From Candidatus Campbellbacteria bacterium GW2011_OD1_34_28 (lineage in GTDB: Bacteria > Patescibacteriota > Minisyncoccia > Phycocordibacterales > UBA12079): 64,000 nt of DNA. The stretch lies in assembly GCA_001029775.1 (NCBI GenBank), contig CP011215.1, positions 426,303-490,302 of the forward strand, read 5' to 3'. The position numbers and the translations under genes are program-made. Positions 3,268 through 53,992 of this stretch are shown piece by piece. Numbering within the stretch: position 1 is the first letter of the stretch; each line of letters opens with the position of its first letter. Below the pieces are notes generated by a model. It ran no database searches. It saw nothing but the letters and a program-made list of their open reading frames with translations, and was not told the origin of the DNA.

Positions 3268-4554
3268 ATGTTTATGGTAAAAAAAACCAAAACAAAAAAG
3301 AATAAGGTGAGAGCTGTCGTTAAAAAGACTTCAGTAAAAAAGACACCAGCCAAGAAAAAAGCGATAAAAAAAATCGTGAAAAAAACGCCTGTCAAAAAGA
3401 GTGTCGTTAAAAAAAGTGCCAAAAAAGTTGTTGCGAAAAAGCCAGTGAAAAAGGTTGTAAAAGCTGTTGTAAAAACAAGGCCCAAAAAAGTCCCTAAAAG
3501 TGATAAGGATAAAAAGCTAGAAAAACTTGTTGCACTGGGTAGAGAAAGAGGTTTTATTACTCACGATGGTATCTTGAAAGAATTTCCTAACATTGAGACC
3601 GATGTAGATTTTTTGGAAGACCTTTACACAAAATTTGAAGAAGCCAATATTGATGTCGTGGATAGCGGTGGTATTTTGGGGCTGGATGATCACGACGATT
3701 TGATTAAAAAATCAACAGGAAAATATGACTCAATTCAGATTTATTTGAAAGAAATCGGAAAATACAAATTGTTGTCCGCTGCCGAAGAAAGAGATCTTGC
3801 TCAGAGAATTGAAGCAGGAGAAGAAGAAGCAAAATCTTTGTTGGCGAGAGCAAATTTGAGATTGGTTGTTTCTATTGCTAAAAAATATATTGGTAGAAGT
3901 CCAAACCTCACCCTTCTAGATCTTATTCAAGAGGGAAATCTGGGATTGTTCAAAGCGGTAGACAAATTTGATTGGAATAAGGGATTCAAGTTTTCTACTT
4001 ATGCTACTTGGTGGATTAGACAAGCAATCACCAGAGCGCTAGCTGATCAATCTAGAACAATCAGAATCCCTGTCCACATGGTGGAAACAATTGCAAAATA
4101 TAAACAAATTATGAGAAAACTTTCTCAAGATTTGGGCAGAATGCCTTCTCCAGAAGAAATGGCAGAAGAGATGGATTTGGAGTTGGAAAAAATTTATAAC
4201 ATTCAACAAATAGACCAAGCGACAATTTCTTTGGAAAATCCAGTAGGAGATGATTCTGACAGTAGCAAATCTACACTGGGCGATTTTATTCCAGATGACA
4301 AAATTTTGATGCCTGATCAAAATTCTTCTCGTAGAATTTTGTCAGATCAAGTAAAAGAGATTTTGGAAGAGCTTTCTCCAAAAGAAAGAAAAATTCTTGA
4401 AATGCGACATGGGCTTCTTGACGGTATTACACATACATTAGAAGAAGTGGGAAAAGAATTTGGAGTAACCAGAGAGAGAATTAGACAGATTGAGGCGAAA
4501 GCACATGAAAAGATTAGACAGAGTGACAAGGTAGACAGACTACGAAACTATTAA
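3268..4554 (+). CDS. rpoD: RNA polymerase sigma-70 factor RpoD with lysine-rich histone-H1-like N-terminal tail replacing region 1.1
   Basis: Regions 1.2-4 recognisable ([55 protein letters not shown]); N-terminal 75 aa are AKKxVKK repeats. Confidence 0.93.
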
Positions 4555-4721: not shown

Positions 4722-7700
4722 ATGCAAAGTGAGATATTTTTAAATGGCAAAAGGTATCTTTCAACAAAAAAAGCGACAAAAATCACAGAATTGGATGAAG
4801 AACATATTAAAGACCTATGCCGTGAAGAAAAGATAGATTTTACAAAGGTAGAAGGGGAATATTTTGTTGAATTAGAAAAACTTTTTGAATATAAAAACAA
4901 AACAAACAAGCCGATGATTTTGCCTATAAGAGCATTATCAACGGCTGTTTTGGCAATTCTCTTGATCGGAGCAGGTTACTTTTCAGGAGACATATTAAAC
5001 CAACTCAACAAAACAGGGGAGGCTGTTTTTTCTGCGGTAAAAAACACAAAAGAAATAACATACAAAGTTGGTGCAGAAAAAAGAGATTTGTTCAAAACAC
5101 AAATTCTTGATAGCAATGACAATTCTCCCATCAAAGAAATAAAAGACAGTAAAAATGTAAAAACAGTAGATACATACACACAAGACTTTTTAGATTATTT
5201 AGATGGATTAAAAAACAGAATTGTTTCCGTAACAGCTGATAGCTTACAGCTGATAGCTGATAGCACAAACGAAGATGAAGTTGAAAAAACAGTCGATAGT
5301 CGTCAGTCTATAGTCGATAGCACGGACGGCGTAAACATACTTGCAGGACAAGTAGATCACCTCACTTCGTTCGCGAAGACGGGTGTAAACAATTTAGCAT
5401 TGGTAGTCTACGAAACAGCAAGTCCTGTGGAACAGTTTGCAGTAGGTTGGTATAAGTTTGTTAATAATTTGTTTAGTAACGAAGCTGATAGCTTACAGCC
5501 AACAGCTGATAGCGTTGACGAAGCTGACAGCGGACAGCTAACAACCAACAGCGCGAACGAAGACGACTCGTCCGTCTTTGCGAGCGATAGCGAAGCGGAC
5601 AGAGATGAGATCTCGGAAAATGTTCCTTCAGTTCCCGCAACCCCAAAGACCACCACCATCGTTACAAACCCAATCAGAGAAATAATAAAAGAAACCGTTG
5701 TAGAAAGAGTAATCCAAACATCAGGCGTCACACTGGAAGATTTTCAAAAACTAAACAATGAATTAAGAAGTGAAATCTACAAATTATCTTCTGCTACTAA
5801 TTCTCAAATCACCAATACATATCAAGTAATCTCTGCCACCAACAACATCGACAATCTGGGTAGTGTCACAATCACCGACTCAAACATCAGTTCCTCAAAT
5901 GTCTCAGGAACAGAACTAAGCTTTACCAACGGAACAATTCAAAACCTAACTGTCACAGGCACAGCTACCTCTACATACGGTGGCCCTATTTCTGCAACCA
6001 GTGGAACATACTCTGGCAATCTAACTGTCACAGGCAACACCACCCTAAACACTCTTACCGTATCAGGAGACACAATCTTTGACACAGACACTCTTTACAT
6101 CGATTCAATCAACAACCGTGTAGGCATCGGATCAACAACACCTTCAGATACTCTTTCAGTAAACGGAGCAACATACCTTGCACCAATATCAGCTCCATCA
6201 ATTACCACAGACAGACTTTACAATATCTCCAATGATTTATACTGGGGTGGTAATCTTTTAGCAGGTTCAGCCGTTGGTAATTGGACATCCAACGGAACAG
6301 ATGTTTGGAGAGCAAGTGGAAATGTTGGGATTGGGACGACTTCACCTAGTTACAAATTATCCGTTGATGGTTTTGTTGATGCAAGCGGAACAACCGGAGG
6401 TTACAAAATAGATGGTAACACTATTTTGCAGGCAAGCTCAACAAATTATACTACTTTAGTTGGCCAAGGTGCTGGAAGTTCTTTAACAAGTGCTATTAGA
6501 ACTACAGCTATTGGATATGGGGCTTTGGCTAGCACAACTTCTGGTAATAATAATACCGCGGTTGGATATAACGCATTAAATCTTAATTCGACAGGAATAC
6601 TTAACACTGCCATCGGCTCTTTAGCTTTGTCCGTTAATACTACAGGTGACAGAAATACAGCCACAGGTGCCTTGGCTTTGTATTCAAACACAACAGGTTC
6701 ATATAACACAGGAACCGGCGCTTATTCTCTTAATCTAAATACCACAGGAGCAAATAATTCCGCTCACGGACGATCAGCTATGTATTCAAATACAACAGGA
6801 ACATATAACACAGCAGATGGTATGCAGGCACTTTTTAGCAATACTACGGGAAATAATAATACTGCTAGCGGTTACAGCTCTGCTTACTCAAATTCTACAG
6901 GTGGAAGCAATGTGACTATTGGATACGGTGCCTCTTATCGCAACTCAACAGGAAGTTACAACACGGCGATTGGTCAGGACGCAGGTTTTGGTGTTGCGGG
7001 AAATTCTTATTCAAACAATTCATTTTTTGGATACCGATCTGGTTATGGAATAACAGTAGGAAGTAATAATTTATTATTGGGATATCAGGCTGGTGACAAC
7101 GTTACAACAGGATCAAATAATCTTGTAATTGGTTATGATATCGACGCCCCTTCAGCCACCGCTTCAAATCAACTAAATATAGGAAACTTAATTTACGGAA
7201 CAAATATAAACGGAACAGGGACAACTTTGTCGTCAGGAAACATCGGCATCGGCACCACTTCACCTTTTGCAAAACTTTCCGTCAAAGGAGCAGGAACAAC
7301 AACAGGCATAAACTTCCAAACAACCAATTCAGCTGACACTCCGTTGGTGACTGTTTTGGATAGTGGAAATGTGGGCATTGGGACAAGTAATCCATCGACA
7401 GATTTACATGTCGGCAATAGTAACATTAACAATAGTGTAGATTCTGTAATCCTTGTTTCTAGGTTGGTAGATAATAGTGGTGTTGGTTCTGGAGTTAATG
7501 GGCACGCTTTTTCTGATAGCTCGACGATAACCAGAAGTGGCTCTATAGGATATAATTCTTTTGATGGCAGGACAATCTTTTCAGGATCAAATGATTATAA
7601 TCATTACGCTGTTTTTCAAAACGGAACAACCTATAGTTCGTCTGGAACAATGGGAATTATGTACGGATTTGTTAATGTGCCAACGGTTACAGCAGGAACA

Positions 7701-16571: not shown

Positions 16572-16732
16572 AATAATTTTGACAATTTAATAATTTTTGA
16601 CAACTTTGATAAATAATTGTTTATTAATGTATCCTACCATCGGTAAAAATTCTTGTCAAGACTTTTAAAACAGACATAAAATATTTTCATAAACCCCTTG
16701 ACACATCTTTTTCTTTGTACTAGTATGGGTTT

Positions 16733-19024
16733 ATGACAAAGAATATAACAAAAAGCTTAATAATATTTCTGGCAATTTTTTCCGCGTTTTCTTTTGGTTT
16801 GATTCCAGTAGATATTCAAGCTGCTACTACTCAAATAAATTTTAATGATGAGATTATGTTTGCTCCGAACTGTTTTTGCGGAGCTGATGTAACAGCATAC
16901 AATCTTTACCCCTGTGAAGATCGTAATTGGTGTAACGGTGATACCTCAATAAAGACAGCCAATGTTTCTAATGGAAAATACAAAGTAAAAGTAAATATAG
17001 CTAAATTAACTGATGGACAAAGATTTGAATCGGTGATTTTTACATTTAATGGAGTAAATTATACTATTCCCGATCTTGGAGGAAATGCAGACTCGACTGG
17101 TACGGGGGTATATGAAGTTGGAACATTTAATTTGTCAGGACCAGTTAGTTTTAAAGGAACTCACAAATATGCCAATACTTTTACAGGTCTTTGGTACTCA
17201 GATCCTTATTCAAAAGTAGGTTCTGGTCACGCAATGGAAAGTGTTTCTATTGCCTCTGTTGTTCTTGAAGAAATTGTTACCCCACCTACTTGTACAATGA
17301 GTGCGGTTCCTTCAACAATAACTGCTGGAAATACATCAAATTTGAGATGGACTTCTACAAACGCAACTAGCGCTGTTATCAATCAAGGAATTGGAAATGT
17401 AGCCGTTAATGGAAATAGAAATGTTTCTCCATTCCAAACAACGACTTACACAGGAACATTTACGGGCCCTGGTGGAACAGTAAATTGTCAAACAACCGTG
17501 ACTGTTACAATACCCCAAATGCCTACTTGTACAATGACAGTTAATCCTGCAAATATTACAACTGGACAAAGTGCAACTTTGAGTTGGACTTCTGTAAACG
17601 CAACTAGCGCTGTTATCAATCAAGGAATTGGAAATGTAGCCGTTAATGGAAGCAGATCTGTTTCACCAACTCAAACAACAACTTATACGGGAACATTTAC
17701 TGGTGCTGGTGGAGTAGTAACTTGTCAAAAAACTTTGACTGTTAACAATGTTCCACCACCTCAATTGCCGACTTGTGCAATGAGTGCTGTTCCTCAAACA
17801 ATCTCTGTTGGAGACACATCAAATTTGAGATGGACATCTACAGGCGCAACCAGTGCTGTTATAAACCAAGGAATTGGCACAGTAGCAGTTGATGGAAATA
17901 GAAATGTTTCACCTACTCAAACCACAACATATACAGGAACCTTTACAGGTTCTGGAGGAAGCGTAGTTTGCCAGACAACAATTATTGTTACATCTACACA
18001 CCCTGCGCCAACTTGTACAATGACAGTTACACCAGACAGTATTGTTAACGGAGGAAATGCTACTCTAGCTTGGAATTCTACAAATGCTACATCTGCTTCT
18101 ATAAATCAAGGTATCGGAACTGTGGCTGTTGATGGAAGTCGTGTTGTTTCTCCAAATCAGACCACAACATATACAGGAACATTTACAGGTTCTGGAGGTG
18201 TTGTTACTTGTAGTGCTATGTTGACTGTTTCTGGAACAGGAGGTCCTTCTATAAATATAACAAAAAATGACAATGACAATGGTGATGATACTCAGGCCGT
18301 TGTGTCTGGGGGGACAGCAACCTTTACAGTCGTTGTGACAAATAATGGAACAAGAGATCTTATTGACGTTGTTGTAACAGATGCTTTGGCACCAAATTGT
18401 AACAGAACAGAAAGTCAAACAGCAGGTCTTTATCCGGGGTTAGTATTTGATCCAGGAGAAAGTTTTACTTATACATGTACTGACACAGATATTACATCAG
18501 CTTATACAAATACAATTAGAGTTGATGCTGATGAAATTGGAACATTTTCTATTGTTAATGACACAGATACCAGCAATGTTACCATAACTGGTTCAGGAAA
18601 TACTCCTACATGTTCTATGAGTTTTACACCAAGTAGCATAAATGTTGGAGACAGATCAACTCTTGCTTGGAATTCAACAAATGTTACTACGGCTGTTATT
18701 GATAACGGTGTAGGTAACGTCAATCCAAATGGTTCAACAGATATATTTAGAACATCGTCTGCAACATATACAGGAACATTTACAGGCCCAGGTGGAGTAG
18801 TGACTTGTCAGGCAAACATAACTGTTGGTGGTGGGGGAGGTGGAGGAACAAATACTCCGCGTATCACGCTATCTTCTGGTTCTGGAGTAACTGAACCCGG
18901 ATTCATTTATTTGAGCCAGATTCCTTATACAGGTATTCCTCAGTTCTTGATGACAATGATGGGATTTGTATTTAGATTCGCGTTCTTTGGAGGATTACTG
19001 TTTGCCTTATACAAAATTAAATAA
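16733..19024 (+). CDS. Secreted surface protein with six tandem Ig-like repeats (PTCTM...TYTGTFTG.GG.V.CQ) and C-terminal cell-wall sorting signal (IPYTG + hydrophobic segment + KIK)
   Basis: Signal peptide MTKNITKSLIIFLAIFSAFSF; repeats evident in translation; C-terminus LSQIPYTGIPQFLMTMMGFVFRFAFFGGLLFALYKIK has LPXTG-like architecture; TTGACA-N17-TAGTAT promoter at ~16699-16727. Confidence 0.8.
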   Translation: MTKNITKSLIIFLAIFSAFSFGLIPVDIQAATTQINFNDEIMFAPNCFCGADVTAYNLYPCEDRNWCNGDTSIKTANVSNGKYKVKVNIAKLTDGQRFESVIFTFNGVNYTIPDLGGNADSTGTGVYEVGTFNLSGPVSFKGTHKYANTFTGLWYSDPYSKVGSGHAMESVSIASVVLEEIVTPPTCTMSAVPSTITAGNTSNLRWTSTNATSAVINQGIGNVAVNGNRNVSPFQTTTYTGTFTGPGGTVNCQTTVTVTIPQMPTCTMTVNPANITTGQSATLSWTSVNATSAVINQGIGNVAVNGSRSVSPTQTTTYTGTFTGAGGVVTCQKTLTVNNVPPPQLPTCAMSAVPQTISVGDTSNLRWTSTGATSAVINQGIGTVAVDGNRNVSPTQTTTYTGTFTGSGGSVVCQTTIIVTSTHPAPTCTMTVTPDSIVNGGNATLAWNSTNATSASINQGIGTVAVDGSRVVSPNQTTTYTGTFTGSGGVVTCSAMLTVSGTGGPSINITKNDNDNGDDTQAVVSGGTATFTVVVTNNGTRDLIDVVVTDALAPNCNRTESQTAGLYPGLVFDPGESFTYTCTDTDITSAYTNTIRVDADEIGTFSIVNDTDTSNVTITGSGNTPTCSMSFTPSSINVGDRSTLAWNSTNVTTAVIDNGVGNVNPNGSTDIFRTSSATYTGTFTGPGGVVTCQANITVGGGGGGGTNTPRITLSSGSGVTEPGFIYLSQIPYTGIPQFLMTMMGFVFRFAFFGGLLFALYKIK
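17285..18240 (+). repeat. Four-five tandem ~240 bp coding repeats (Ig-like domains) inside surface protein gene; a further copy at ~18598..18840
   Basis: Repeated PTCTM(S/T)xxP...RWTSTNATSAVINQGIG...TTTYTGTFTG units. Confidence 0.75.
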
Positions 19025-22212: not shown

Positions 22213-22272
22213 AGCAACTGTCACACAGGCTCAATCTGTGTGGCAGTTTTTAATTGTGGTATTATCATAAAT

Positions 22273-23184
22273 ATGAAAAAGGGAAAGATAATTGTTGTTT
22301 TGGGACCTACCTCTTCGGGTAAAAGTGATCTGGCTGTGGAATTAGCAAAAAAATTCAATGGGGAAATTATCTCGGCAGACTCAAGACAAGTATATAAAGG
22401 ATTAGATATTGGAAGTGGAAAAATAACCAAAAAAGAAATGCAGAAAATTCCGCACTATCTTTTGGATGTTGTTAGTCCAAAATCTGTTTTTACAATTGCA
22501 CAATTTAAAAAAAATACAGACAAAATAATCAGAGATATTCTGAAGAAAGGGAAGACGCCGATTATTGCTGGCGGAACTGGTTTTTATATTCAATCAATTG
22601 TAGACAATATTGTATTGCCCGAAGTAAAACCAAATTTGAAATTGAGAAAAGAATTGGCAAAAAAATCAGTTGATGAATTGGCAAATATTTTAAAAAAAAT
22701 GGACAAGAATAGGGCGGGGGAAATAGACCTGAAAAACCCTCGTCGTTTGATACGGGCGATAGAAATCGCTACTGAACTCGGCAAAGTTCCCAAGCTCTCC
22801 ACCAACAGCAACCCGGTTGCTGTTGGTGGAGAGTATGATGTATTGCAGATCGGGATTAAGACGGATGATGATATTTTGAAAGAAAGGATAGCAAAAAGAT
22901 TTGAAAAGCGTGTTAAAGCAGGAATTGTAAAAGAGGCAGAAGATTTACATAAAAATGGTTTGAGTTGGAAGAGGATGAAAGAAATCGGTTTGGCTCATAA
23001 ATATATATCTTTGCATTTGCAGGGAAAAATGACCAAAGATGAAATGATAGAAAATTCTATCAGAGAAGAATGGCAATATGCCAAAAGACAAAAAACATGG
23101 TTTAAGAGAGATAAGAGAATTGAGTGGTTTGGTTTGGAAGAAAAAAATAAAATTTTTGCAAAGACGAAAAAATTTTTAAAATAA
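22273..23184 (+). CDS. miaA: tRNA dimethylallyltransferase MiaA
   Basis: P-loop GPTSSGKS, SADSRQVYKGLDIGSGK; start chosen at MKKGKIIVVLGP (ORF-track start 22240 probably too far upstream); preceded by extended -10 TGGTATTAT, likely leaderless. Confidence 0.9.
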   Translation: MKKGKIIVVLGPTSSGKSDLAVELAKKFNGEIISADSRQVYKGLDIGSGKITKKEMQKIPHYLLDVVSPKSVFTIAQFKKNTDKIIRDILKKGKTPIIAGGTGFYIQSIVDNIVLPEVKPNLKLRKELAKKSVDELANILKKMDKNRAGEIDLKNPRRLIRAIEIATELGKVPKLSTNSNPVAVGGEYDVLQIGIKTDDDILKERIAKRFEKRVKAGIVKEAEDLHKNGLSWKRMKEIGLAHKYISLHLQGKMTKDEMIENSIREEWQYAKRQKTWFKRDKRIEWFGLEEKNKIFAKTKKFLK

Positions 23185-26152: not shown

Positions 26153-27400
26153 ATGCAATTAAAACACTTATACAAAACATCATTCACAGGACTTCGGACT
26201 AACAAAGTTAGGTCTCTTTTGACTATTCTAGGAATTGTTATTGGAATATCGTCTATTATTTTGATTTTTTCTTTGGGCAAAGGTGTAGAAGGTTTGATTA
26301 CGGGTGAGTTAAGCGGTATGGGAGCAGACACTATTGTCATCAGGCCAGGACAACAACCAACAGGATTGAACGATTTTAGTGAAACTCTTTTTTCTGATTC
26401 TTTGAAAAGCAGAGATGTAGAGGCTTTGAAAAAAAAATCTAATGTACCTCATTTGGCAAAGATTGCTCCCGCAATAATCGTTCCAGGGAGAGTCTCTTAT
26501 AGAGGAGAAACATTTAAGCCGATGATTTTTGGTTGGACAGCAGAATTGATGACAGAAATGTTTGGTGTTGAAATTGATTCAGGCGATCTTTTTTATGAAA
26601 GCGATATTAGATCAAAAGCGAGTGTGGCAATTATTGGTTCAAAAGTAAAAGAAGAATTGTTTGGTAATGAAGAAAATGTTGTTGGAAAAAATATAAAAAT
26701 AAAAGATAGAAATTTTAGAGTAGTGGGTGTTCTAAAACCACAAGGACAGGTATCCAGTTTCAATGTTGATGAATTGGTTGTTTTGCCATATTCAACAGCA
26801 CAAATTTATTTGATGGGGATTGACCATTATCACGAAATTATTTTAAAAGCCGATTCTCCAGAAAATGTTTCTCAGACAGTAGAAGATGTGAAAGACACAT
26901 TGAGAGAGATGCACGATATTACAGATCCATCCAAAGACGATTTTTTTGTGGTTACTCCCGAGGGGATGCTTGAACAAATAGGAAATATTTTGGATGCACT
27001 GACACTTTTCTTGTCAGCTGTTGTGGGAATTGCTTTGGTTGTAGGAGGAGTGGGTGTCATGAACATTATGCTTGTGTCAGTAACAGAGAGAACAAAAGAA
27101 ATTGGTTTGAGAAAAGCAATCGGAGCAACGAACAAAGATATTATGATTCAATTTCTTTTTGAATCCATGATGCTCACAATCACGGGTGGTGTAATCGGTA
27201 TTATAATAGGAATGTCGCTTTCTTTGATCACAACCATCGCCATTTTAAGTTTTACAACTTACGCATGGAGTTTTTCTTTCCCTGTTGGAGCATCTATTCT
27301 AGGAATTGTTGTCTCTGGCTTAATCGGAGTTATTTTTGGAATTTATCCAGCAAAAAAAGCTTCTCAAAAGAGCCCTATCGAAGCTTTGCGATACGAATAA
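26153..27400 (+). CDS. ABC transporter permease, FtsX/MacB-type (4 TM, large periplasmic loop)
   Basis: N-terminal TM, ~220 aa extracytoplasmic domain, C-terminal three-TM bundle with conserved RTKEIGLRKAIGA motif. Confidence 0.9.
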   Translation: MQLKHLYKTSFTGLRTNKVRSLLTILGIVIGISSIILIFSLGKGVEGLITGELSGMGADTIVIRPGQQPTGLNDFSETLFSDSLKSRDVEALKKKSNVPHLAKIAPAIIVPGRVSYRGETFKPMIFGWTAELMTEMFGVEIDSGDLFYESDIRSKASVAIIGSKVKEELFGNEENVVGKNIKIKDRNFRVVGVLKPQGQVSSFNVDELVVLPYSTAQIYLMGIDHYHEIILKADSPENVSQTVEDVKDTLREMHDITDPSKDDFFVVTPEGMLEQIGNILDALTLFLSAVVGIALVVGGVGVMNIMLVSVTERTKEIGLRKAIGATNKDIMIQFLFESMMLTITGGVIGIIIGMSLSLITTIAILSFTTYAWSFSFPVGASILGIVVSGLIGVIFGIYPAKKASQKSPIEALRYE

Positions 27401-27459
27401 ATTTAGAAAATTTCTCAAAGGTAGGTAGCAGGAATTTTTCCCTGTGTTATACTAAAATA

Positions 27460-27580
27460 GTTCTGTTGTCGGGGATTGGCGTCCCTCGGAATAAAAGGGT
27501 TACCTTGTTTGGAAAGCATCCTGCCAATTTTTGGTTCAAGGATGCAACGCCCAACCCGCGGTTTTCCGCGGGTTTTTTAT
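27460..27580 (+). ncRNA. Candidate structured small RNA, copy 1 (own extended -10 TGTTATACT, conserved 5' GGGGAUUGGCGUCCCUCG, variable hairpin, conserved 3' domain, intrinsic terminator CCCGCGG-UUUU-CCGCGGG-U6)
   Basis: Promoter at 27445..27453; 5' and 3' ends pair (UUGGCGU / ACGCCCAA); terminator 27555..27578; no plausible CDS. Confidence 0.6.
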
Positions 27581-27628
27581 TTATTGACATTTTCAGATTT
27601 TAATTTATATTATTGTTATACCTCCTAT

Positions 27629-27760
27629 GTGACTTGCTTGCATGGAGAAAAGGGGATTGGCGTCCCTCGAAATGTTTGGGTCCGCACATTTAGAAAGTAT
27701 CCTGCCTTAATTGGTTCAAGGATGCAACGCCCAACCCGCGGTTTTCCGCGGGTTTTTTTA
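27629..27760 (+). ncRNA. Candidate structured small RNA, copy 2 (tandem paralogue; variable hairpin AAAUGU...ACAUUU replaces AAGG-GUUA-CCUU of copy 1)
   Basis: Promoter TGTTATACC at 27614..27622; identical 5' 18 nt and 3' ~50 nt plus identical terminator at 27735..27759; compensatory base changes in the variable hairpin. Confidence 0.6.
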
Positions 27761-27813
27761 TTGTCTTTGTTCTCTACTTGATACTTACTACTTACTACTT
27801 TATACTTATTTTT

Positions 27814-29571
27814 ATGCAATCAAACGAAATACGACAAAGGTTTTTAAAATTTTTTGAAAAGAGAGGACATTCTATTATTCCTTCTGCTTCTTTAGTTCCC
27901 GAAAATGATCCTTCTGTACTTTTTAATACTGCTGGTATGCAACCGCTAGTACCGTATTTGTTAGGCGAAGAGCACCCTGCGGGAAAAATGATTGTTGATG
28001 CACAAAAATGTGTTAGAACAACAGACATTGAAGAAGTGGGTGACAATACTCACCTTACATTTTTTGAAATGCTAGGCAACTGGTCTTTAGGAGATTATTT
28101 CAAAAAAGATGCAATCAGTTGGTCTTATGAATTTTTGACTGATAAAAACGATGGGCTAGGACTTGATCCAAAAAAACTTTATGTAACTGTTTTTGAGGGG
28201 AACGATGATGCTCCGAGAGACGAAGAAGCATATTCAATTTGGAAAAATATTTTTGTTAATGCGGGACTAAATCCGGACGGACATATTTTCTTTATGTCTG
28301 CAGAATCAAATTGGTGGAGTCCAGGGGACAATGGACCATGTGGCCCTGATACCGAAATGTTTTATAGCACAGCGGGTGATTTGGGTGACTTAACAAAAGA
28401 AGAATTTATCAAAGCAGATGATGAACAAAAAATCGTTGAAATTTGGAACGATGTGTTTATGGAATATGAAAAAAAAGATGGGAAAGTAATTGGAAAATTG
28501 AAACAACACAATGTTGATACGGGAGCGGGATTGGAGAGGCTGGCAACCATGTTGCAGGGTAAGACAAATGTTTACGAGACAGATGGATTCAAAAGTATAA
28601 TGAACCAGACTAAACAGGTCTCCTCAGACAAAAAATCTCAAAGAATTATTGCCGATCATTTGAGAACTTCTGTTTTTATTATTGCTGACGGTGTATTACC
28701 AGATAATCATGATCAAGGTTATGTCTTGAGAAGAATTTTGAGAAGAGCTATCTTAAAGACTGATAATAAAGAAATAAATGCAGGAAATGTTTCAACCCTT
28801 GTAGATTCAGTCGTTGATTATTATGGAGGTTTTTATAAAAATTTATCTGATAAGAGAGCGGAAATAAAACAAATAATCGAAAAAGAAAATGAAAAATTTT
28901 CAAAAACTTTGTCTCAAGGTTTAAAACAGTTGGAAAAAATTTCAGGGGATATCTCAGGAAAAGATGCTTTTGTTTTATCTGCTACTTATGGTTTTCCTAT
29001 TGAAATAACAGAAGAAATTGCAAAAGAAAAAGGTGTGTTTATTGATATAAAAGGATACGAAGAAGAAATGAAAAAACATCAAGAACTTTCAAAGACAGCT
29101 TCGGCGGGTAAATTTAAAGGAGGTCTTGCAGGTGACGATGAAAATTCTACAAAATTACATACTGCTACTCATATGTTGCATCAAGCATTGCGACAAGTTC
29201 TGGGCGATCATGTCGTTCAAAAAGGAAGTAACATTACACCAGACAGACTAAGGTTTGATTTTTCTCATTCTGATAAAATGACTGACGAAGAAAAACAGAA
29301 AGTAGAAAATATTGTAAACGAACAAATTCAAAAACATTTGGATGTAAAAATGCAAGAAATGTCTGTGAGTGAAGCAAAAGAAAAAGGAGCGCTAGGTGTA
29401 TTTGATGAAAAATACGGAGAGAAAGTAAAAGTTTACTCTGTTGGTTCATTTAGCAAAGAAATTTGTGGAGGACCTCACATAAAAAATACAAGCGAGTTGG
29501 GAGTTTTCAAAATCAAAAAAGAAGAAGCTAGCTCGGCTGGCGTGCGTCGTATAAAAGCGATATTAGAGTAG
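27814..29571 (+). CDS. alaS: Alanyl-tRNA synthetase, compact form (catalytic + tRNA-recognition + editing domains, no C-Ala extension)
   Basis: MQSNEIRQRFLKFFEKRGH start; WNDVFMEY, editing HTATHMLHQALRQVLGDH and C-terminal CGGPH motifs; own TTGATA-N17-TATACT promoter at ~27771-27806, near-leaderless; ORF-track start 27778 is too far upstream. Confidence 0.9.
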   Translation: MQSNEIRQRFLKFFEKRGHSIIPSASLVPENDPSVLFNTAGMQPLVPYLLGEEHPAGKMIVDAQKCVRTTDIEEVGDNTHLTFFEMLGNWSLGDYFKKDAISWSYEFLTDKNDGLGLDPKKLYVTVFEGNDDAPRDEEAYSIWKNIFVNAGLNPDGHIFFMSAESNWWSPGDNGPCGPDTEMFYSTAGDLGDLTKEEFIKADDEQKIVEIWNDVFMEYEKKDGKVIGKLKQHNVDTGAGLERLATMLQGKTNVYETDGFKSIMNQTKQVSSDKKSQRIIADHLRTSVFIIADGVLPDNHDQGYVLRRILRRAILKTDNKEINAGNVSTLVDSVVDYYGGFYKNLSDKRAEIKQIIEKENEKFSKTLSQGLKQLEKISGDISGKDAFVLSATYGFPIEITEEIAKEKGVFIDIKGYEEEMKKHQELSKTASAGKFKGGLAGDDENSTKLHTATHMLHQALRQVLGDHVVQKGSNITPDRLRFDFSHSDKMTDEEKQKVENIVNEQIQKHLDVKMQEMSVSEAKEKGALGVFDEKYGEKVKVYSVGSFSKEICGGPHIKNTSELGVFKIKKEEASSAGVRRIKAILE

Positions 29572-29660
29572 AAAGGGGTAAGGTATAAGGTGTAAGTATA
29601 AAAAATTTCCACAAAATTCTACTTTCTACTTTCTACTTTCTCCTTTATACTATTATATGT

Positions 29661-30875
29661 ATGTCGCTATTTTCGTTTTCAAAAAATAAAACAGAAGAAG
29701 AAGGGGTTGTTTTGGTTTTTGATATTGGGAGTGCCAGTGTTGGTGGCGCTCTTGTTTCTCTTCGTAAAAATAAAAAACCAAAAATTCTCTACAATGTACG
29801 AAAATCAATGGCCTTTAAAGAGGATTTAGATATAAACAAATTTACCGCTTCTATGATCAGAACTCTTAGTTCTGTTGTCGCTGATGTTGAAAGAAAAGGA
29901 ATATCGCATCTCAATTTTAGGAGTTTAAAAAACAAAGAAATAAGAGACGCTTTTTGTTTCTTTTCTTCTCCTTGGTATATTTCACAAACTCAAGTTGTTA
30001 AGTTGGAAGAAAAAGAAAAATTTTTTATTACCAATGAGATGATAAAAGATATTTTAGAGAAAGAAAAATCTGATTTTATAAAAAATAATGAGAAATTCTT
30101 TGGTGACGGTAGTGATGTTGAATTTATGGACAGTAAAGTCATTCAGGTCAGATTGAATGGTTACAGAGTAGAAGATCCTTTCAAGAAAAAAACGAATCAT
30201 GCAGAGGTAGTAGTATATCTAAGTTTAATTTCGTCTGATGTAGAAGAAAAAGTAAAACAAGTTATCGCAAAACCTTTTCACCTGGATAATATTTATTCTC
30301 ACTCGTTTACCTTAGCAGGATTTTTGTCACTGAGGGATATTTTTGAATTTGAAGACGATTTTGTTTTTTTGGATATAAGTGGAGAGGTAACCGATGTTTC
30401 TTTTGTTAAAAACGATTCTTTACGAGAAACCGAAACTTTTCCAGTCGGGCGAAATGCATTTATTCGCGAAATATTGAAAGATTTTAAAACAAATTATAGC
30501 AGTGCTGTTTCCATGATCAATGTTTATAAAGCGGGAAATATTGACTCGGACAATTCAAAAAAGATAGAAGCATCTTTGAACAAGGTCAGAAAGAGTTGGG
30601 TTAAGTATCTGGAAAATTCTATGTTTGAACTTTCTCATGGAGCAATTTTACCAAGAACTATTTTTGTAATTGCAGATGAGGATCTTGGAGAGATTTTGAT
30701 AAATATAATTCAAGAAGAAAAATTTACTAAATTGGTTTTTCCTGATTACAACAAATCAACAAATCCAATTTTGATAAAACCAGATATAATGGGGAAAATT
30801 TGTGATATTGAAAATGATGTAGAAAAAGACATATTTATCATTATGGAAGCTGTTTTCATCAATAGATTGATTTAA
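29661..30875 (+). CDS. Actin-like ATPase of the FtsA/PilM family (hypothetical)
   Basis: N-terminal VLVFDIGSASVGGALV phosphate-1-like motif and later FLDISGEVTDVSF (GGxTD-like) motif; no database check possible. Confidence 0.45.
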   Translation: MSLFSFSKNKTEEEGVVLVFDIGSASVGGALVSLRKNKKPKILYNVRKSMAFKEDLDINKFTASMIRTLSSVVADVERKGISHLNFRSLKNKEIRDAFCFFSSPWYISQTQVVKLEEKEKFFITNEMIKDILEKEKSDFIKNNEKFFGDGSDVEFMDSKVIQVRLNGYRVEDPFKKKTNHAEVVVYLSLISSDVEEKVKQVIAKPFHLDNIYSHSFTLAGFLSLRDIFEFEDDFVFLDISGEVTDVSFVKNDSLRETETFPVGRNAFIREILKDFKTNYSSAVSMINVYKAGNIDSDNSKKIEASLNKVRKSWVKYLENSMFELSHGAILPRTIFVIADEDLGEILINIIQEEKFTKLVFPDYNKSTNPILIKPDIMGKICDIENDVEKDIFIIMEAVFINRLI

Positions 30876-50469: not shown

Positions 50470-52689
50470 CTACTTGCTACTCAACTTATCCGGCCTATGG
50501 TTCGGGCAATTTTTATCACTACATCTGTCAGGGATTGTTTTGGTACCTTTCATCATCAGCTTGCCACACATTGGGCAAAGATTTCCTGTTGGCTCTGCTT
50601 TGATAGCCAACTTACAATCGGGATAATTTGAACAAGAATAAAATTCTCCAAATCTCCCTCTTCTTTTTACCATATATCCGTTCTTACATTCGGTACACTT
50701 AACACCAGTAGAATTTTTTCTTTCCAATTCTTCATCTTTTTTTACAAACTTACATTTTGGATAATTTGAACAAGCAATAAATCTTCCAAATTTTCCGTCT
50801 CTCTCTACCAAAGGATTTCCACAATCAGGACATGGCTCGCCAGTTTCTTTCGGACCTTCCAATTCTTTTCCTTCTATTGTTCGAGCACCATTACAATCTG
50901 GAAATTTTGCACAGCTCATAAATTTGCCATTTTTTGCAAGTTTAATAACCATTGCGCCCCCACACTCTGGACATTTAAATTCTTTTGGTGCATCACCCAG
51001 ATTGGTTATTTTTTCTATTCCTTCTTTTGCTTTAATATCTTTTGTAAAAGGTGTGTAAAATTCTGTTAGAGTTTTTACATAATCTCTTTCTCCATTTGCT
51101 ATTTCGTCCAATTTATCTTCCATCTCGGCAGTAAACAAATCGCTGATGTAGTTTTCAAAATGATTTTCCAAAAAAGTACTCACTACTTCGCCTGTGTCTG
51201 TTGGTCGCAAAGCAGTTCCTTCTTTGTCGGCATAAGCGCGGTCTTTTAATGTTTTTATAATTGTCGCATAGGTGCTGGGACGACCAATTCCTCTTTTCTC
51301 CAATTCTTTAATCAGACCAGCTTCGGAGTATCTTTGAGGTGGTTGAGTCTGCTTGTCTTCTACATTCATTTTTAATAAATCTAAATCCTCGCCAATTTTT
51401 ATTGCAGGCAATTCTGTGTCTTCTCCTCGAGCAGAAGGATCGGCCAAAAGCCATCCATCAAAAAGAACTCGAGATCCGTTTATATTAAATTCTGGTATTC
51501 TTGCCTCGCCGGCAGGCAGGTTTTCTTTTCCCTCAACATCAACGACGATTTTTGATCTTAATATTTTTGCATCGGACATTTGAGAGGCAATTGTTCTTTG
51601 CCAAATCAATCTATACAATTTTTTCTGTTCATCGGTTGATCCAACATTTTCTTTTGTTATGCTTGTTGGACGAATTGCTTCGTGAGCTTCTTGTGCATTT
51701 TTTGACTTTGTTTTGTATACTCTCGCCTCAACATATTTCTTGCCGTATTTTTTTTCTATCTCGCTTAAAATTTGTTTTTGAGCAGTTTGGCTAATTGTCG
51801 TGCTGTCAGTTCTCATATAAGTAATGTATCCTGCTTCGTACAATTTTTGGGCGACACCCATTGTCTTGCTTGGAGCAAATCCCATTCTAGAGCTGGCTGT
51901 TTGTTGTAGTGTAGATGTAGTAAAAGGAGCACGAGGAGATCTCTTTGCCTCGGTTTCTTTTAGATCGGCTACTTTCCAAGTGCCGTTATTTCCGACTTCA
52001 AGAATTTTTTCTACTTGATTTTTGTCGCGGGGTTCTTCTGAACAATTCAAGGTAAAAGTAGTTGCAGATTTTGTTTTTACATCTGCGGTGATTACGAAGT
52101 AGTCTTCTGGAATGAAAGCTTTTATTTCTCTTTCTTTTTCAACCAAAATACGCAAAGCAGGGGACTGAACCCTTCCTGCAGAAAGACCATAACGAACTTT
52201 TTTCCAAATCAAACCGCTAAGATCGTATCCAAAAAGTCTATCTAAAACACGACGAGCTTCTTGAGCTCGTCTTAAATTATCATCTATATCACGCGGGTGT
52301 TTCAGCGCTTCTTTGATTGCACTTTCGGTAATTTCGTTAAAGGTCACTCTCTTGATACTTGATACTTGTAACTTATTACTCTTCAAATCCTCTTTTAGGA
52401 TTTGAAGCAGGTGCCACGCAATAGCTTCTCCTTCACGGTCAGGATCGGGGGCGAGAATAATCTCGTCTGCATCCTTTGCAAGAGTCTTTAATTCTTTTAT
52501 CACCTTTTCTTTTCCCTTGATTGTTTCATAGTTGGGAATGAACCCTCCTTCTATATCTATGGCTGTTTTATTGCTTTTAGGCAAATCACGAATATGTCCC
52601 ACAGATGATGTGACAACGTAATCTTTGCCAAGATATTTATTAATAGTCTTTGCTTTCGCAGGAGACTCTACTATCAAAAGTTTTGACAT
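50470..52689 (-). CDS. topA: DNA topoisomerase I with C-terminal zinc-ribbon repeats
   Basis: TOPRIM MSKLLIVESPAKAKTI, catalytic region, multiple CPxCG zinc fingers. Confidence 0.95.
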   Translation of the reverse strand: MSKLLIVESPAKAKTINKYLGKDYVVTSSVGHIRDLPKSNKTAIDIEGGFIPNYETIKGKEKVIKELKTLAKDADEIILAPDPDREGEAIAWHLLQILKEDLKSNKLQVSSIKRVTFNEITESAIKEALKHPRDIDDNLRRAQEARRVLDRLFGYDLSGLIWKKVRYGLSAGRVQSPALRILVEKEREIKAFIPEDYFVITADVKTKSATTFTLNCSEEPRDKNQVEKILEVGNNGTWKVADLKETEAKRSPRAPFTTSTLQQTASSRMGFAPSKTMGVAQKLYEAGYITYMRTDSTTISQTAQKQILSEIEKKYGKKYVEARVYKTKSKNAQEAHEAIRPTSITKENVGSTDEQKKLYRLIWQRTIASQMSDAKILRSKIVVDVEGKENLPAGEARIPEFNINGSRVLFDGWLLADPSARGEDTELPAIKIGEDLDLLKMNVEDKQTQPPQRYSEAGLIKELEKRGIGRPSTYATIIKTLKDRAYADKEGTALRPTDTGEVVSTFLENHFENYISDLFTAEMEDKLDEIANGERDYVKTLTEFYTPFTKDIKAKEGIEKITNLGDAPKEFKCPECGGAMVIKLAKNGKFMSCAKFPDCNGARTIEGKELEGPKETGEPCPDCGNPLVERDGKFGRFIACSNYPKCKFVKKDEELERKNSTGVKCTECKNGYMVKRRGRFGEFYSCSNYPDCKLAIKAEPTGNLCPMCGKLMMKGTKTIPDRCSDKNCPNHRPDKLSSK

Positions 52690-52831
52690 AGTTAGACAAA
52701 GTATAACAGATGTAGAAAAAAAGCAAGCGCAGGTATTGACAAATATTTATTTTATTATAGTATATTGGCAGGATTCAACGGCGTTTGTGCTGTTGAGAAA
52801 TTAAAATTTTTAGGTTTTAGGAGGTGTTCGT

Positions 52832-53992
52832 ATGGCAAAGTCACTGGTAGGAATTCAGACATTGGAGTCTCTCGCTGGCTGGAAAATGATCGCCGAGAGG
52901 ACTAACGAGACCGAGGAGACTGTCCAGACCGGTCAGACCAAACCCGCAGAGTTCCGGATTTATCGGAACGATGACTTGGGGGTCGAGATTCATGTCCGGC
53001 GTTCGCTGGTCAAGGAAGGACTCGATTTCCTGCCTGGGATGGTAAAGGATGTCGAGACAGGAAAAGACCTGTGGAGTTTTTTTCAGGAGCAGTCCAAAGG
53101 ACTCGGACACCTGCTCGCCATTAACGGCGAGGTGGTCATCGGCCTGGAGGAGTGGGGCGATCTGAAGAAGGTCATCCCCGTCGCCGATCTGCGCAAGCAG
53201 AAGACCGTCGTCGTTGATGGCGTGTCCAAAATTGTCGGTGGTCGTGGCGTTCTCGCTACGGTCGATCTCAAACACTCGGTTGCCGAGGCGCTTTCTACCG
53301 ATCAGGGCAGGAGCATCAAGGCCAACATCACCGACGCCGAGCGCGCGGTGATGAGAAAACTTTCTGATGCCCGCAAGGCCAGTGAGGAGCGTGAGCGATT
53401 GGCACGGGAAACCGCGCGTCGCGAGCGGATCGCCAAGATCAAGAGCCGGCAACAGATTTCCGGCATGGTCGTGGAGAACGGCAGGGGTTCGCGTTGGGCG
53501 ATTCCTGTCACAGAAGACGAATGGATGTCTTTTGGGACCGACGACGGCATGGTTGCCATCGTTGCCGGTTTCGGTGAAGACGGCAAGCCCATCGTTCCCG
53601 AAGACGGAGTGGTGGAGGCATTTTTCATTCAGTATCGCAAGGGCGGTGGTGGACGGCCGGAGAAGAAGGCACAGGTGAAAATCCGTCTTCGTGGCTACGA
53701 ACAGGCCGAGCCCGTGAAGGAAGCATCCGTCTCCGCACCGACGCTCGTCAAACTGGAAACCGTCTTTATCGAGGTTTCCAAGGATCAGGCGAAATCCCTC
53801 GGCATCGATTCCGGATTTCAGGAAGTCAGTCTTACGGATGCAGAGGGGATTTCCACTCTGCGGAAGGCAGGTCTCAACAGCGGTGCGCTCGTCGCGATCT
53901 CCGCCACCGACGGATCCGATCGGATTCAGGTGGAGAAGTTCGTTGACGGCCAGACGCAGACCTTGGGCCTCTTTAATCCGATCACGATGTGA
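52832..53992 (+). CDS. Hypothetical protein (386 aa) in ~58% GC cassette with TTGACA promoter, AGGAGGTG SD and hairpin terminator; two globular halves joined by basic coiled-coil (ERERLARETARRERIAKIKSRQQ)
   Basis: SD 52817..52824; promoter gtaTTGACAaat...TAGTAT at ~52762..52795; terminator CCCGTCGTTGC...GCAACGACGGG T6 at 54013..54062. Confidence 0.7.
   Translation: MAKSLVGIQTLESLAGWKMIAERTNETEETVQTGQTKPAEFRIYRNDDLGVEIHVRRSLVKEGLDFLPGMVKDVETGKDLWSFFQEQSKGLGHLLAINGEVVIGLEEWGDLKKVIPVADLRKQKTVVVDGVSKIVGGRGVLATVDLKHSVAEALSTDQGRSIKANITDAERAVMRKLSDARKASEERERLARETARRERIAKIKSRQQISGMVVENGRGSRWAIPVTEDEWMSFGTDDGMVAIVAGFGEDGKPIVPEDGVVEAFFIQYRKGGGGRPEKKAQVKIRLRGYEQAEPVKEASVSAPTLVKLETVFIEVSKDQAKSLGIDSGFQEVSLTDAEGISTLRKAGLNSGALVAISATDGSDRIQVEKFVDGQTQTLGLFNPITM

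Follow-up and report, generated by a model that had tools for sequence, protein, structure and literature searches.

What two short direct repeats are doing between an ABC-transporter operon and alaS is the question raised by a locus in Candidatus Campbellbacteria bacterium GW2011_OD1_34_28. The window analysed is a 64,000-nt stretch of this genome (contig CP011215.1, positions 426,303 to 490,302, with a base composition of ~34% G+C), and the repeats lie within 27440-27770 of it with a period of 181 nt. An initial annotation, made from the letters of the window alone, had described them as a tandem pair of structured small RNAs (sRNAs) upstream of alaS, and the pair proved to consist of two repeats far beyond what chance would give. 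The interpretation preferred here, with moderate confidence, is that they encode two paralogous sibling sRNAs acting in trans, of the type represented by OmrA/OmrB or PrrF1/PrrF2.

The two units, their terminators and their predicted promoters

Only two exact copies of the 18-mer GGGGATTGGCGTCCCTCG are present in the whole window, at 27471 and 27652 (0.02 copies expected by chance; allowing up to three mismatches adds none), and likewise only two of the 24-mer GGTTCAAGGATGCAACGCCCAACC, at 27533 and 27713 (0 expected). The units containing these blocks, unit 1 at 27471-27578 and unit 2 at 27652-27759, are each ~108 nt long and lie on the plus strand, like the features below unless otherwise stated. 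They are distinguished chiefly by a central segment of ~25 nt and by a single loop. The core of each consists of the 5' block GGGGAUUGGCGUCCCUCG, a variable and always paired helix (P2), a conserved bulged helix (P3) and an ACGCC segment.

A terminator scan gave five terminator-like sites in the region against 0.8 expected, and both units end in the same intrinsic terminator, AACCCGCGG-UUUU-CCGCGGGUU, with nine pairs, a UUUU loop and a T-run, situated at 27553-27574 with its U-tract to 27578 in the first unit (RNA-1) and at 27733-27754 with its U-tract to 27759 in the second (RNA-2). The conserved 3' domain and the identical terminators described initially are thus both borne out. According to the same scan the terminator of RNA-1 is the first one after the FtsX stop codon at 27400, and since no other lies between the two it probably also ends the ABC-transporter operon, the genes of which, upstream of the cassette formed by the two units, encode HlyD, an ABC ATPase and a MacB/FtsX permease.

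When reading the sequence upstream of unit 1 an extended -10 element, TGTTATACT (TG-T-TATACT), was identified directly at 27445-27453; the -10 box is TATAAT in the relative L006 and a shifted TATAAT in L005. For RNA-2 the extended -10 element TGTTATACC, at 27614-27622, overlaps a promoter region (27584-27622) in which the promoter scan recognised TTGACA at 27584-27589 and, after 16 nt, TATATT at 27606-27611, with 11 of 12 matches. Both of the extended -10 elements first proposed are therefore present, and the second copy has in addition this better σ70 promoter. The -10 boxes are situated 17 and 29 nt 5' of the 18-mer, so that this block, while identical in the two copies as claimed, is not the 5' end of the transcripts. 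The predicted transcription starts are ~27459-27461 for RNA-1 and ~27618-27630 for RNA-2, giving predicted transcripts of ~120 nt (27459-27578; covariance model score 128 bits) and ~130-140 nt (27619-27759; 132 bits). The leader of RNA-2 may form a hairpin of its own, CUCC-U-AUG...CAU-GGAG, at 27622-27647. The heptamer TTATACT is about twofold enriched in the window, with 16 copies against 8.5 expected, and a TTATACT box of the RNA-1 type is also located 7-11 nt before the ATG of alaS, of the next gene and of topA. From these elements we infer that each unit is transcribed independently from its own σ70-type promoter.

Relatives, predicted fold and conservation

For comparison, loci (designated L001, L002 and so on) were fetched by way of AlaRS homologues, FtsX homologues and DNA patterns, and a covariance model of the units (R1) recognised 18 units, scoring 100-133 bits, in L001-L009. 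L006, L007 and L009 belong to the same species as the window (~97% identity), and L005 and L001-L004/L008 are more distant, with flanking DNA 82-92% identical. The number of units is one in L001 and L005 and two in L002, L004 and L008, while L003 carries two units and a third, partial one past a scaffold gap and hence possibly three; this gap, a run of N at 1491-1590, lies within the cassette, tandem units being a cause of breaks in assemblies. The central segments stand in opposite order when comparing L002/L008 with L003/L004, strains with identical AlaRS, which indicates that the siblings exchange centres by recombination within the identical blocks that flank them. In all nine of these relatives the cassette begins ~70-100 nt after FtsX.

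Outside this group little was found. A DNA pattern scan of genome contigs gave no match, a scan of metagenomes gave three loci, all near-identical to types already found, and two scans of viral contigs gave chance matches only, none above 12.5 bits with the covariance model. R1 showed nothing above 16 bits in the rest of the window, in alaS loci of 64-77% identity or in 29 FtsX-anchored loci, the filters being off for the rest of the window, L010, L012, L014, L054, L055, L016-L017 and L040-L044 and at default for L018-L039. The FtsX-anchored search also revealed lineages with 75-98% identical FtsX that lack the cassette, among them L017, where an FtsX protein of 98% identity is followed at 5249-5473 by unrelated sequence without any cassette, the contig ending 228 nt later. 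Together with the gap in L003, this divergence suggests that the region downstream of FtsX is a variable spot. The units were accordingly detected only in a narrow subclade of Campbellbacteria, plus a possible distant relative in L054.

Folding of unit 1 (106 nt, 27473-27578) with RNAfold gave a three-way junction both as minimum free energy (MFE) structure and as centroid, with z = -4.2; when the predicted leader of RNA-1 is included the MFE structure keeps the junction, whereas the centroid is an alternative 5' hairpin. RNAalifold on the 18 units, using the sequence alignment alone, itself fitted to the R1 covariance model, likewise gave a three-way junction followed by the terminator, and separate pair counts agree with it on P1, a variable P2, a conserved P3 and then the terminator. 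The folding that had been suggested at the outset thus yielded a defined structure, the consensus order of which is the closing helix P1 (GGCGU/ACGCC), the junction strand J1/2 (CCC), P2, J2/3 (AA), P3, J3/1 (A) and the terminator. P2 begins with UC/GA and one mismatch before the variable helix, and P3 has the consensus GYAUCCU-GCC-loop-GGU-UCA-AGGAURC. In the predicted fold of RNA-1, P1 is formed by 27478-27482 and 27547-27551, J1/2 by 27483-27485, P2 by 27486-27513, J2/3 by 27514-27515, P3 by 27516-27545 with the UCA bulge at 27536-27538, and J3/1 by 27546. In RNA-2 the corresponding elements are P1 at 27659-27663 and 27727-27731, J1/2 at 27664-27666, P2 at 27667-27694, P3 at 27697-27725 and J3/1 at 27726. 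The pairing between the two ends of each unit, first read as UUGGCGU with 7-8 bp, holds for the five pairs of GGCGU/ACGCC, and the UU/AA extension is deleted or changed in relatives, so the longer helix was an over-reading.

Among the 12 distinct rows of the alignment standard pairs occupy 348 of 348 pair cells; shifting the 3' partners by one to three columns lowers the share to 33-48%. In P2 two pairs are changed on both sides and two on one side, the helix existing in three versions, GAAUA/UGUUU, AAAUGU/ACAUUU and AGACG/CGUUU, and one pair of P3 varies between C-G, U-G and U-A. The central hairpins of the two copies, GAAUA..AGG/CCU..UGUUU in the first and AAAUGU/ACAUUU in the second, do therefore differ and still pair, as was claimed, and the homologues found give modest covariation support for P2, within the limit of three independent variants.

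P1 has a competitor in the 5' hairpin GGGAU-UGGC-GUCCC, which is mutually exclusive with it. With either of the two forced, the structures are 0.7-1.5 kcal/mol apart in the units of the window, L002 and L006, while in L005 the 5' hairpin is favoured over P1 by 4.3 kcal/mol, and the pair probabilities of P1 range from 0 to 0.78. For the terminator, the pair probabilities are 0.93-1.0 whichever variant or conformer is considered. P2, P3 and the terminator can thus be regarded as solid, and the closing helix P1 may, judging from the folding energies, be one state of a two-state RNA.

With the FtsX stop codon and the second terminator as its limits, the cassette is 94.2% identical between the window and L004, compared with 81.4% for the FtsX coding sequence and 85.1% for the first 770 nt of alaS, where third codon positions are only 66.9% identical. 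The 75-nt spacer between the units, containing the promoter and leader of RNA-2, shows a single indel relative to lineages with synonymous sites 33% diverged. The differences that are present in the cassette, in loops, in a CAA linker and in the region upstream of unit 1, argue against the block as a whole having been transferred very recently. Because the cassette is more conserved than the coding DNA flanking it, the simplest reading of these comparisons is purifying selection on the promoters, the leaders and the RNA bodies. This, and the fold kept through changes in relatives, is in line with the structure under selection that had been suggested for the two copies.

Coding potential, known RNA families and the relation to alaS

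The units are non-coding and fall outside every Rfam family. A search of the whole window with Rfam 15 (4227 models) gave no match at gathering thresholds, and when 27350-27900 was searched permissively (E up to 10) all matches stayed below threshold. Trp_leader (27.8 bits against a threshold of 41) and MicX (25.2 bits against 75) scored best, and the part that matches well in the alignments shown is the terminator. ARAGORN found no tRNA or tmRNA gene in the window. This agrees with the initial annotation, in which no known family was recognised.

The only frame of note is an open reading frame (ORF) of 101 aa with a TTG start, 27476-27781, which spans both units and reads their 5' halves in different frames, since 181 is not a multiple of three. 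It has no homologue in 5.8 billion predicted proteins, and its use as a protein proxy for further loci gave no matches. In relatives the region of this ORF carries indels of +2, -3 and 1 nt, and an ATG on the minus strand of unit 1 is, as read from the sequence, absent in unit 2. A small protein or type I toxin gene was rejected on these grounds, and the absence of a coding frame stated initially holds.

Several structured-RNA candidates were likewise tried and rejected. A T-box leader would have an antiterminator, which is lacking here, and RF00230 has no match at E up to 10 to a core of only ~74 nt. For a generic transcriptional riboswitch, P1 competes with the 5' hairpin and not with the terminator, alaS has its own promoter, and the gene downstream is a σ70 gene in L001-L004. 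The junction strands CCC, AA and A, with no ribozyme family of Rfam matching at E up to 10, do not fit the catalytic core of a hammerhead (CUGANGA ... GAAA ... UH) or another three-way-junction self-cleaving ribozyme, and the segment GGUUCAAGG is not a T-loop or tRNA mimic, being divided between two helices and the 3-nt bulge that separates them. HDV-like ribozymes, kink-turns, CsrB-like GGA repeats, TIGR arrays and type I or type III toxin-antitoxin systems were dismissed by inspecting sequence and fold.

The gene alaS starts with the ATG at 27814 and encodes a short protein of 585 aa (Pfam tRNA-synt_2c, 3.8e-134). Its putative promoter, recognised by the promoter scan outside the RNA cassette, consists of TTGATA at 27778-27783 and, after 17 nt, TATACT at 27801-27806; the distance from the end of the -10 box to the ATG is 7 nt and a Shine-Dalgarno (SD) sequence is absent, giving a leaderless-type layout. 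This promoter is kept in L005, L014 and L054, even though in L014 holB lies upstream and RNA units are absent. In L001-L004 a σ70 gene is located more than 230 nt past the cassette and alaS ~1.3 kb downstream, and L010, L012 and L014 have alaS without any such element. The alaS promoter, the intervening σ70 gene and a terminator predicted to form in every state together exclude an ordinary alaS leader, T-box or riboswitch, which upholds the earlier statement that the units are not simply the leader of alaS; their relation to the gene is positional rather than demonstrably functional. A link between the RNAs and the σ70 gene was also considered and rejected, the sigma proteins of L002 and L054 being only 32% identical and the sigma gene of the window being located elsewhere.

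Between the cassette and the inserted σ70 gene of L002 (1690-1731; the same in L001, L003 and L004) there is a long inverted repeat, nearly perfect, TAATACTCAAAATT...AATTTTGAGTATTA, with TGACG/CGTCA as its core. Leaderless-looking genes, lacking an SD and with a -10 box (TTATACT or TATTAT in many cases) that ends 6-11 nt from the ATG, are common in the window, as at 27778-27816, 29621-29663, 52689-52706 (minus strand), ~22255-22275 and 16700-16735, and a GGAG or GAGG was found upstream of only 18 of 45 crude gene calls. Just 5' of some of these -10 boxes there are direct heptad repeats, TTGATAC-TTACTAC-TTACTAC-TT for alaS (27778-27800) and three copies of ACTTTCT for the next gene (29621-29645), with related TTGATAC repeats also seen in L005 and L014, and these repeats could serve to bind a regulator or act as an UP-like element. 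Within alaS the segment 28590-29065 is 75% identical or unalignable between strains otherwise ~97% identical (L006 and L009 compared with the window), which points to a mosaic, recombinant gene.

In L054, the AlaRS of which is 74% identical, a different three-way junction of ~140 nt with a terminator is situated at 4085-4225, directly upstream of the leaderless alaS promoter. It comprises a P1 of UGGUAAU/AUUACCA, a long P2 and then GGAAUUCU-CC-GUUAA-GG-UUA-AGAAUUUC-A, and mirrors P3 and J3/1 of the window units in architecture and in the string GGUU(C)AAG(R)AU. A structure-only descriptor of P3 had ~45 other matches in ~1 Mb of strand, none of them with this string, whereas the score of the element against R1, 13.8 bits, is at noise level for a 100-kb search; MAFFT mis-registers its P1. 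The element is probably, not certainly, homologous to the RNAs of the window. The public alaS gene call in L054 starts inside the terminator, and the true ATG is probably at 4270. L055, from a lineage of more distant Patescibacteria, has a leaderless alaS preceded at 4800-5090 by two tandem units, each of which combines hairpins and a terminator with a promoter-like sequence; one of the units has an 11-bp hairpin, GGUGGUGGCGU/ACGCCACCACC, and no relation of these units to the window RNAs was detectable. Neither the L054 nor the L055 element matches Rfam, and a likeness between the N-terminal extension of the L055 AlaRS homologue (GSR...RPT) and the window sequence was rejected as coincidence.

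Elsewhere in the window an island of 55-62% G+C at 52832-53992 was observed, which coincides with an ORF of 386 aa between the divergent topA and an SMC-like gene. This ORF has a good SD and no Pfam or Rfam match, and may be a horizontally acquired gene.

Proposed sibling small RNAs and the alternative explanations

What was found at the locus corresponds in layout to a pair of sibling sRNAs: adjacent paralogues, each with a predicted promoter and an intrinsic terminator, with conserved ends and a divergent centre, the paralogy being shown also by the recombinant central segments in L001-L004. Under this interpretation the products would be terminated RNAs of ~120-140 nt, trans-acting and redundant, with no cis control of alaS. 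The core can close into a compact three-way junction by means of P1 or, alternatively, open into the 5' hairpin GGGAU/GUCCC and a free C-rich 3' linker. The invariant and partly single-stranded C-rich segments, GUCCCUCG and the ACGCC(C)n by the terminator, would be the likeliest contact surface, either for target mRNAs, for instance in their G-rich ribosome-binding regions, or for a protein, with P2, P3 and the terminator serving as scaffold and stability elements. As no terminator separates RNA-1 from FtsX, transcripts of the HlyD/ABC/MacB operon could also yield it as their 3' end.

The arrangement resembles that of OmrA and OmrB, sibling sRNAs of Enterobacteria (PMC2588501), which are likewise the products of neighbouring genes on the same strand with near-identical 5' and 3' ends, a distinct centre and their own intrinsic terminators; among the relatives of the window a single strain may have one unit or both. 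The two are unrelated in sequence and family, the Rfam model OmrA-B scoring 18-21 bits against a gathering threshold of 40, over the 3'/terminator part of each unit. They also differ in that the seed of OmrA/B is the free 5' end, whereas the conserved block of the window units lies 10-30 nt inside the predicted transcript and is largely paired, and in that the centre of the window units is a hairpin of conserved shape within a three-way junction. A second parallel is the tandem sRNA locus PrrF1 and PrrF2 of Pseudomonas aeruginosa (PMC7948967), which also gives the read-through RNA PrrH (PMC7948967, PMC2851614). As there, two highly similar sRNA genes stand in tandem, with a predicted promoter and terminator for each window unit, and the unusually well conserved spacer would fit a PrrH-like read-through product; unlike PrrF, the window units belong to an unrelated sequence and phylum, their terminators are predicted to be strong, and no regulator site such as a Fur box was identified at the cassette. 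Taken together, the RNA family is new to Rfam and its arrangement, tandem sibling sRNAs, is already familiar.

The C-rich-motif sRNAs of Firmicutes, of the RsaE/RoxS type, are small multi-hairpin RNAs with invariant UCCC or C-rich single-stranded stretches and a terminator hairpin, and those stretches could pair with G-rich ribosome-binding sites. In the window units, by contrast, the C-rich motifs are in the junction or by the terminator and not in apical loops, and there is no Rfam match; the scope for such a mechanism is also limited because many genes of the genome are leaderless or without SD.

Several points weigh against the interpretation as base-pairing siblings. The promoters and transcript ends of RNA-1 and RNA-2 are predictions from the sequence. 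The covariation support is modest, with few independent variants and a family detected in close relatives only, and P1, P3b and the terminator are invariant among the rows, so that covariation neither supports nor contradicts them. When the 18-nt block was scanned for duplexes with the translation-initiation regions of the window the best, at -18.9 kcal/mol, fell at the 1% quantile of the background and no target emerged, and both predicted conformers have a large part of the putative seed in base pairs. A three-way junction that is tight and conserved is, furthermore, a feature expected more in RNAs that bind proteins or ligands than in sRNAs acting by simple base pairing, and the possible relative just upstream of alaS in L054 would be compatible with a functional link to that gene.

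The most probable alternative is that the RNAs act in trans as structured binders of a protein or ligand, the junction being an aptamer or a docking scaffold, as in 6S, Y RNA or CsrB, or an orphan aptamer, with the near-isoenergetic junction and 5'-hairpin states as a switch set by the partner. The tight junction with its invariant nucleotides CCC, AA and A, the invariant bulge and G-U pair of P3, two conformers within ~1.5 kcal/mol of each other in the window, L002 and L006 units, conservation exceeding that of the flanking coding DNA and the failure of the target scan would all suit it. It is nevertheless unlikely, since the loci examined show no partner gene linked to the cassette, none of the known aptamer families matches, repeated protein-binding motifs are absent (GGA motifs are not kept between the copies) and the range is very narrow for a housekeeping ribonucleoprotein.

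Rather improbable is also the explanation of the units as 3' modules of the HlyD/ABC/MacB operon, which would stabilise its 3' end and insulate the leaderless alaS promoter without any function in trans. The stretch without terminator from the FtsX stop to unit 1 and the constant position of the cassette behind FtsX in L001-L009 speak for such modules, and leaderless promoters are sensitive to occlusion. Insulation would, however, need a terminator alone and not a junction, compensatory changes in P2 or a conserved promoter for each unit; close relatives with 98% identical FtsX lack the cassette, and the possible relative in L054 does not adjoin FtsX.

A cis-acting tandem attenuator or riboswitch-like leader of alaS, with read-through depending on tRNA-Ala, AlaRS or a metabolite, has a slightly lower probability still. 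Compact multi-helix domains followed by a terminator, in tandem and upstream of an aminoacyl-tRNA synthetase gene, are features the window units share with riboswitches and T-box leaders, and alaS is T-box-controlled in Firmicutes. The units stand immediately 5' of alaS in the window, L005 and L006-L009, and in both L054, with its possibly related junction and terminator, and L055, with its two hairpin-terminator units, alaS is preceded by elements of comparable layout. What sets the window units apart is the absence of a stable antiterminator, with a terminator probability of ~1 in all states, a predicted promoter for each unit, the conserved leaderless-type promoter of alaS, a downstream gene that varies (σ70 in L001-L004), the alaS genes of L010, L012 and L014 that do without the element, and the lack in Rfam of any match to a T-box or a riboswitch.

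A decaying or neutral duplication or mobile-element remnant without function, which the narrow and patchy range, the varying copy number and the variable intergenic region might suggest, is very improbable given a cassette far more conserved than synonymous sites, helix substitutions that all keep pairing, and the absence of terminal repeats, of a transposase and of further copies in the window (R1, filters off) or in viral contigs.

The sibling-sRNA interpretation is accordingly retained. A full-text literature search found no study of regulatory sRNAs in the Candidate Phyla Radiation (CPR, Patescibacteria), bacteria with tiny genomes that are mostly uncultured. In this setting the cassette is a clean sRNA candidate, with predicted promoters, a defined fold and strong terminators, which could be sought in existing groundwater metatranscriptomes, and the locus displays the dynamics of sRNA genes at strain level, by change in copy number and by exchange of centres between siblings. 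The narrow range limits the wider impact unless a link to alaS, a ligand or a protein partner is confirmed. To our knowledge CPR bacteria rarely carry T-box leaders. It is conceivable, at a low probability equal to that given to the attenuator, that the units and the L054 element together represent an undescribed class of structured RNAs neighbouring alaS in Patescibacteria, in which a bistable junction senses tRNA-Ala, AlaRS or a metabolite and acts in trans or, by transcriptional interference, on the leaderless promoter of alaS. If true, such a signal-binding class linked to alaS would mean that CPR bacteria have a new way of controlling an aminoacyl-tRNA synthetase by RNA.

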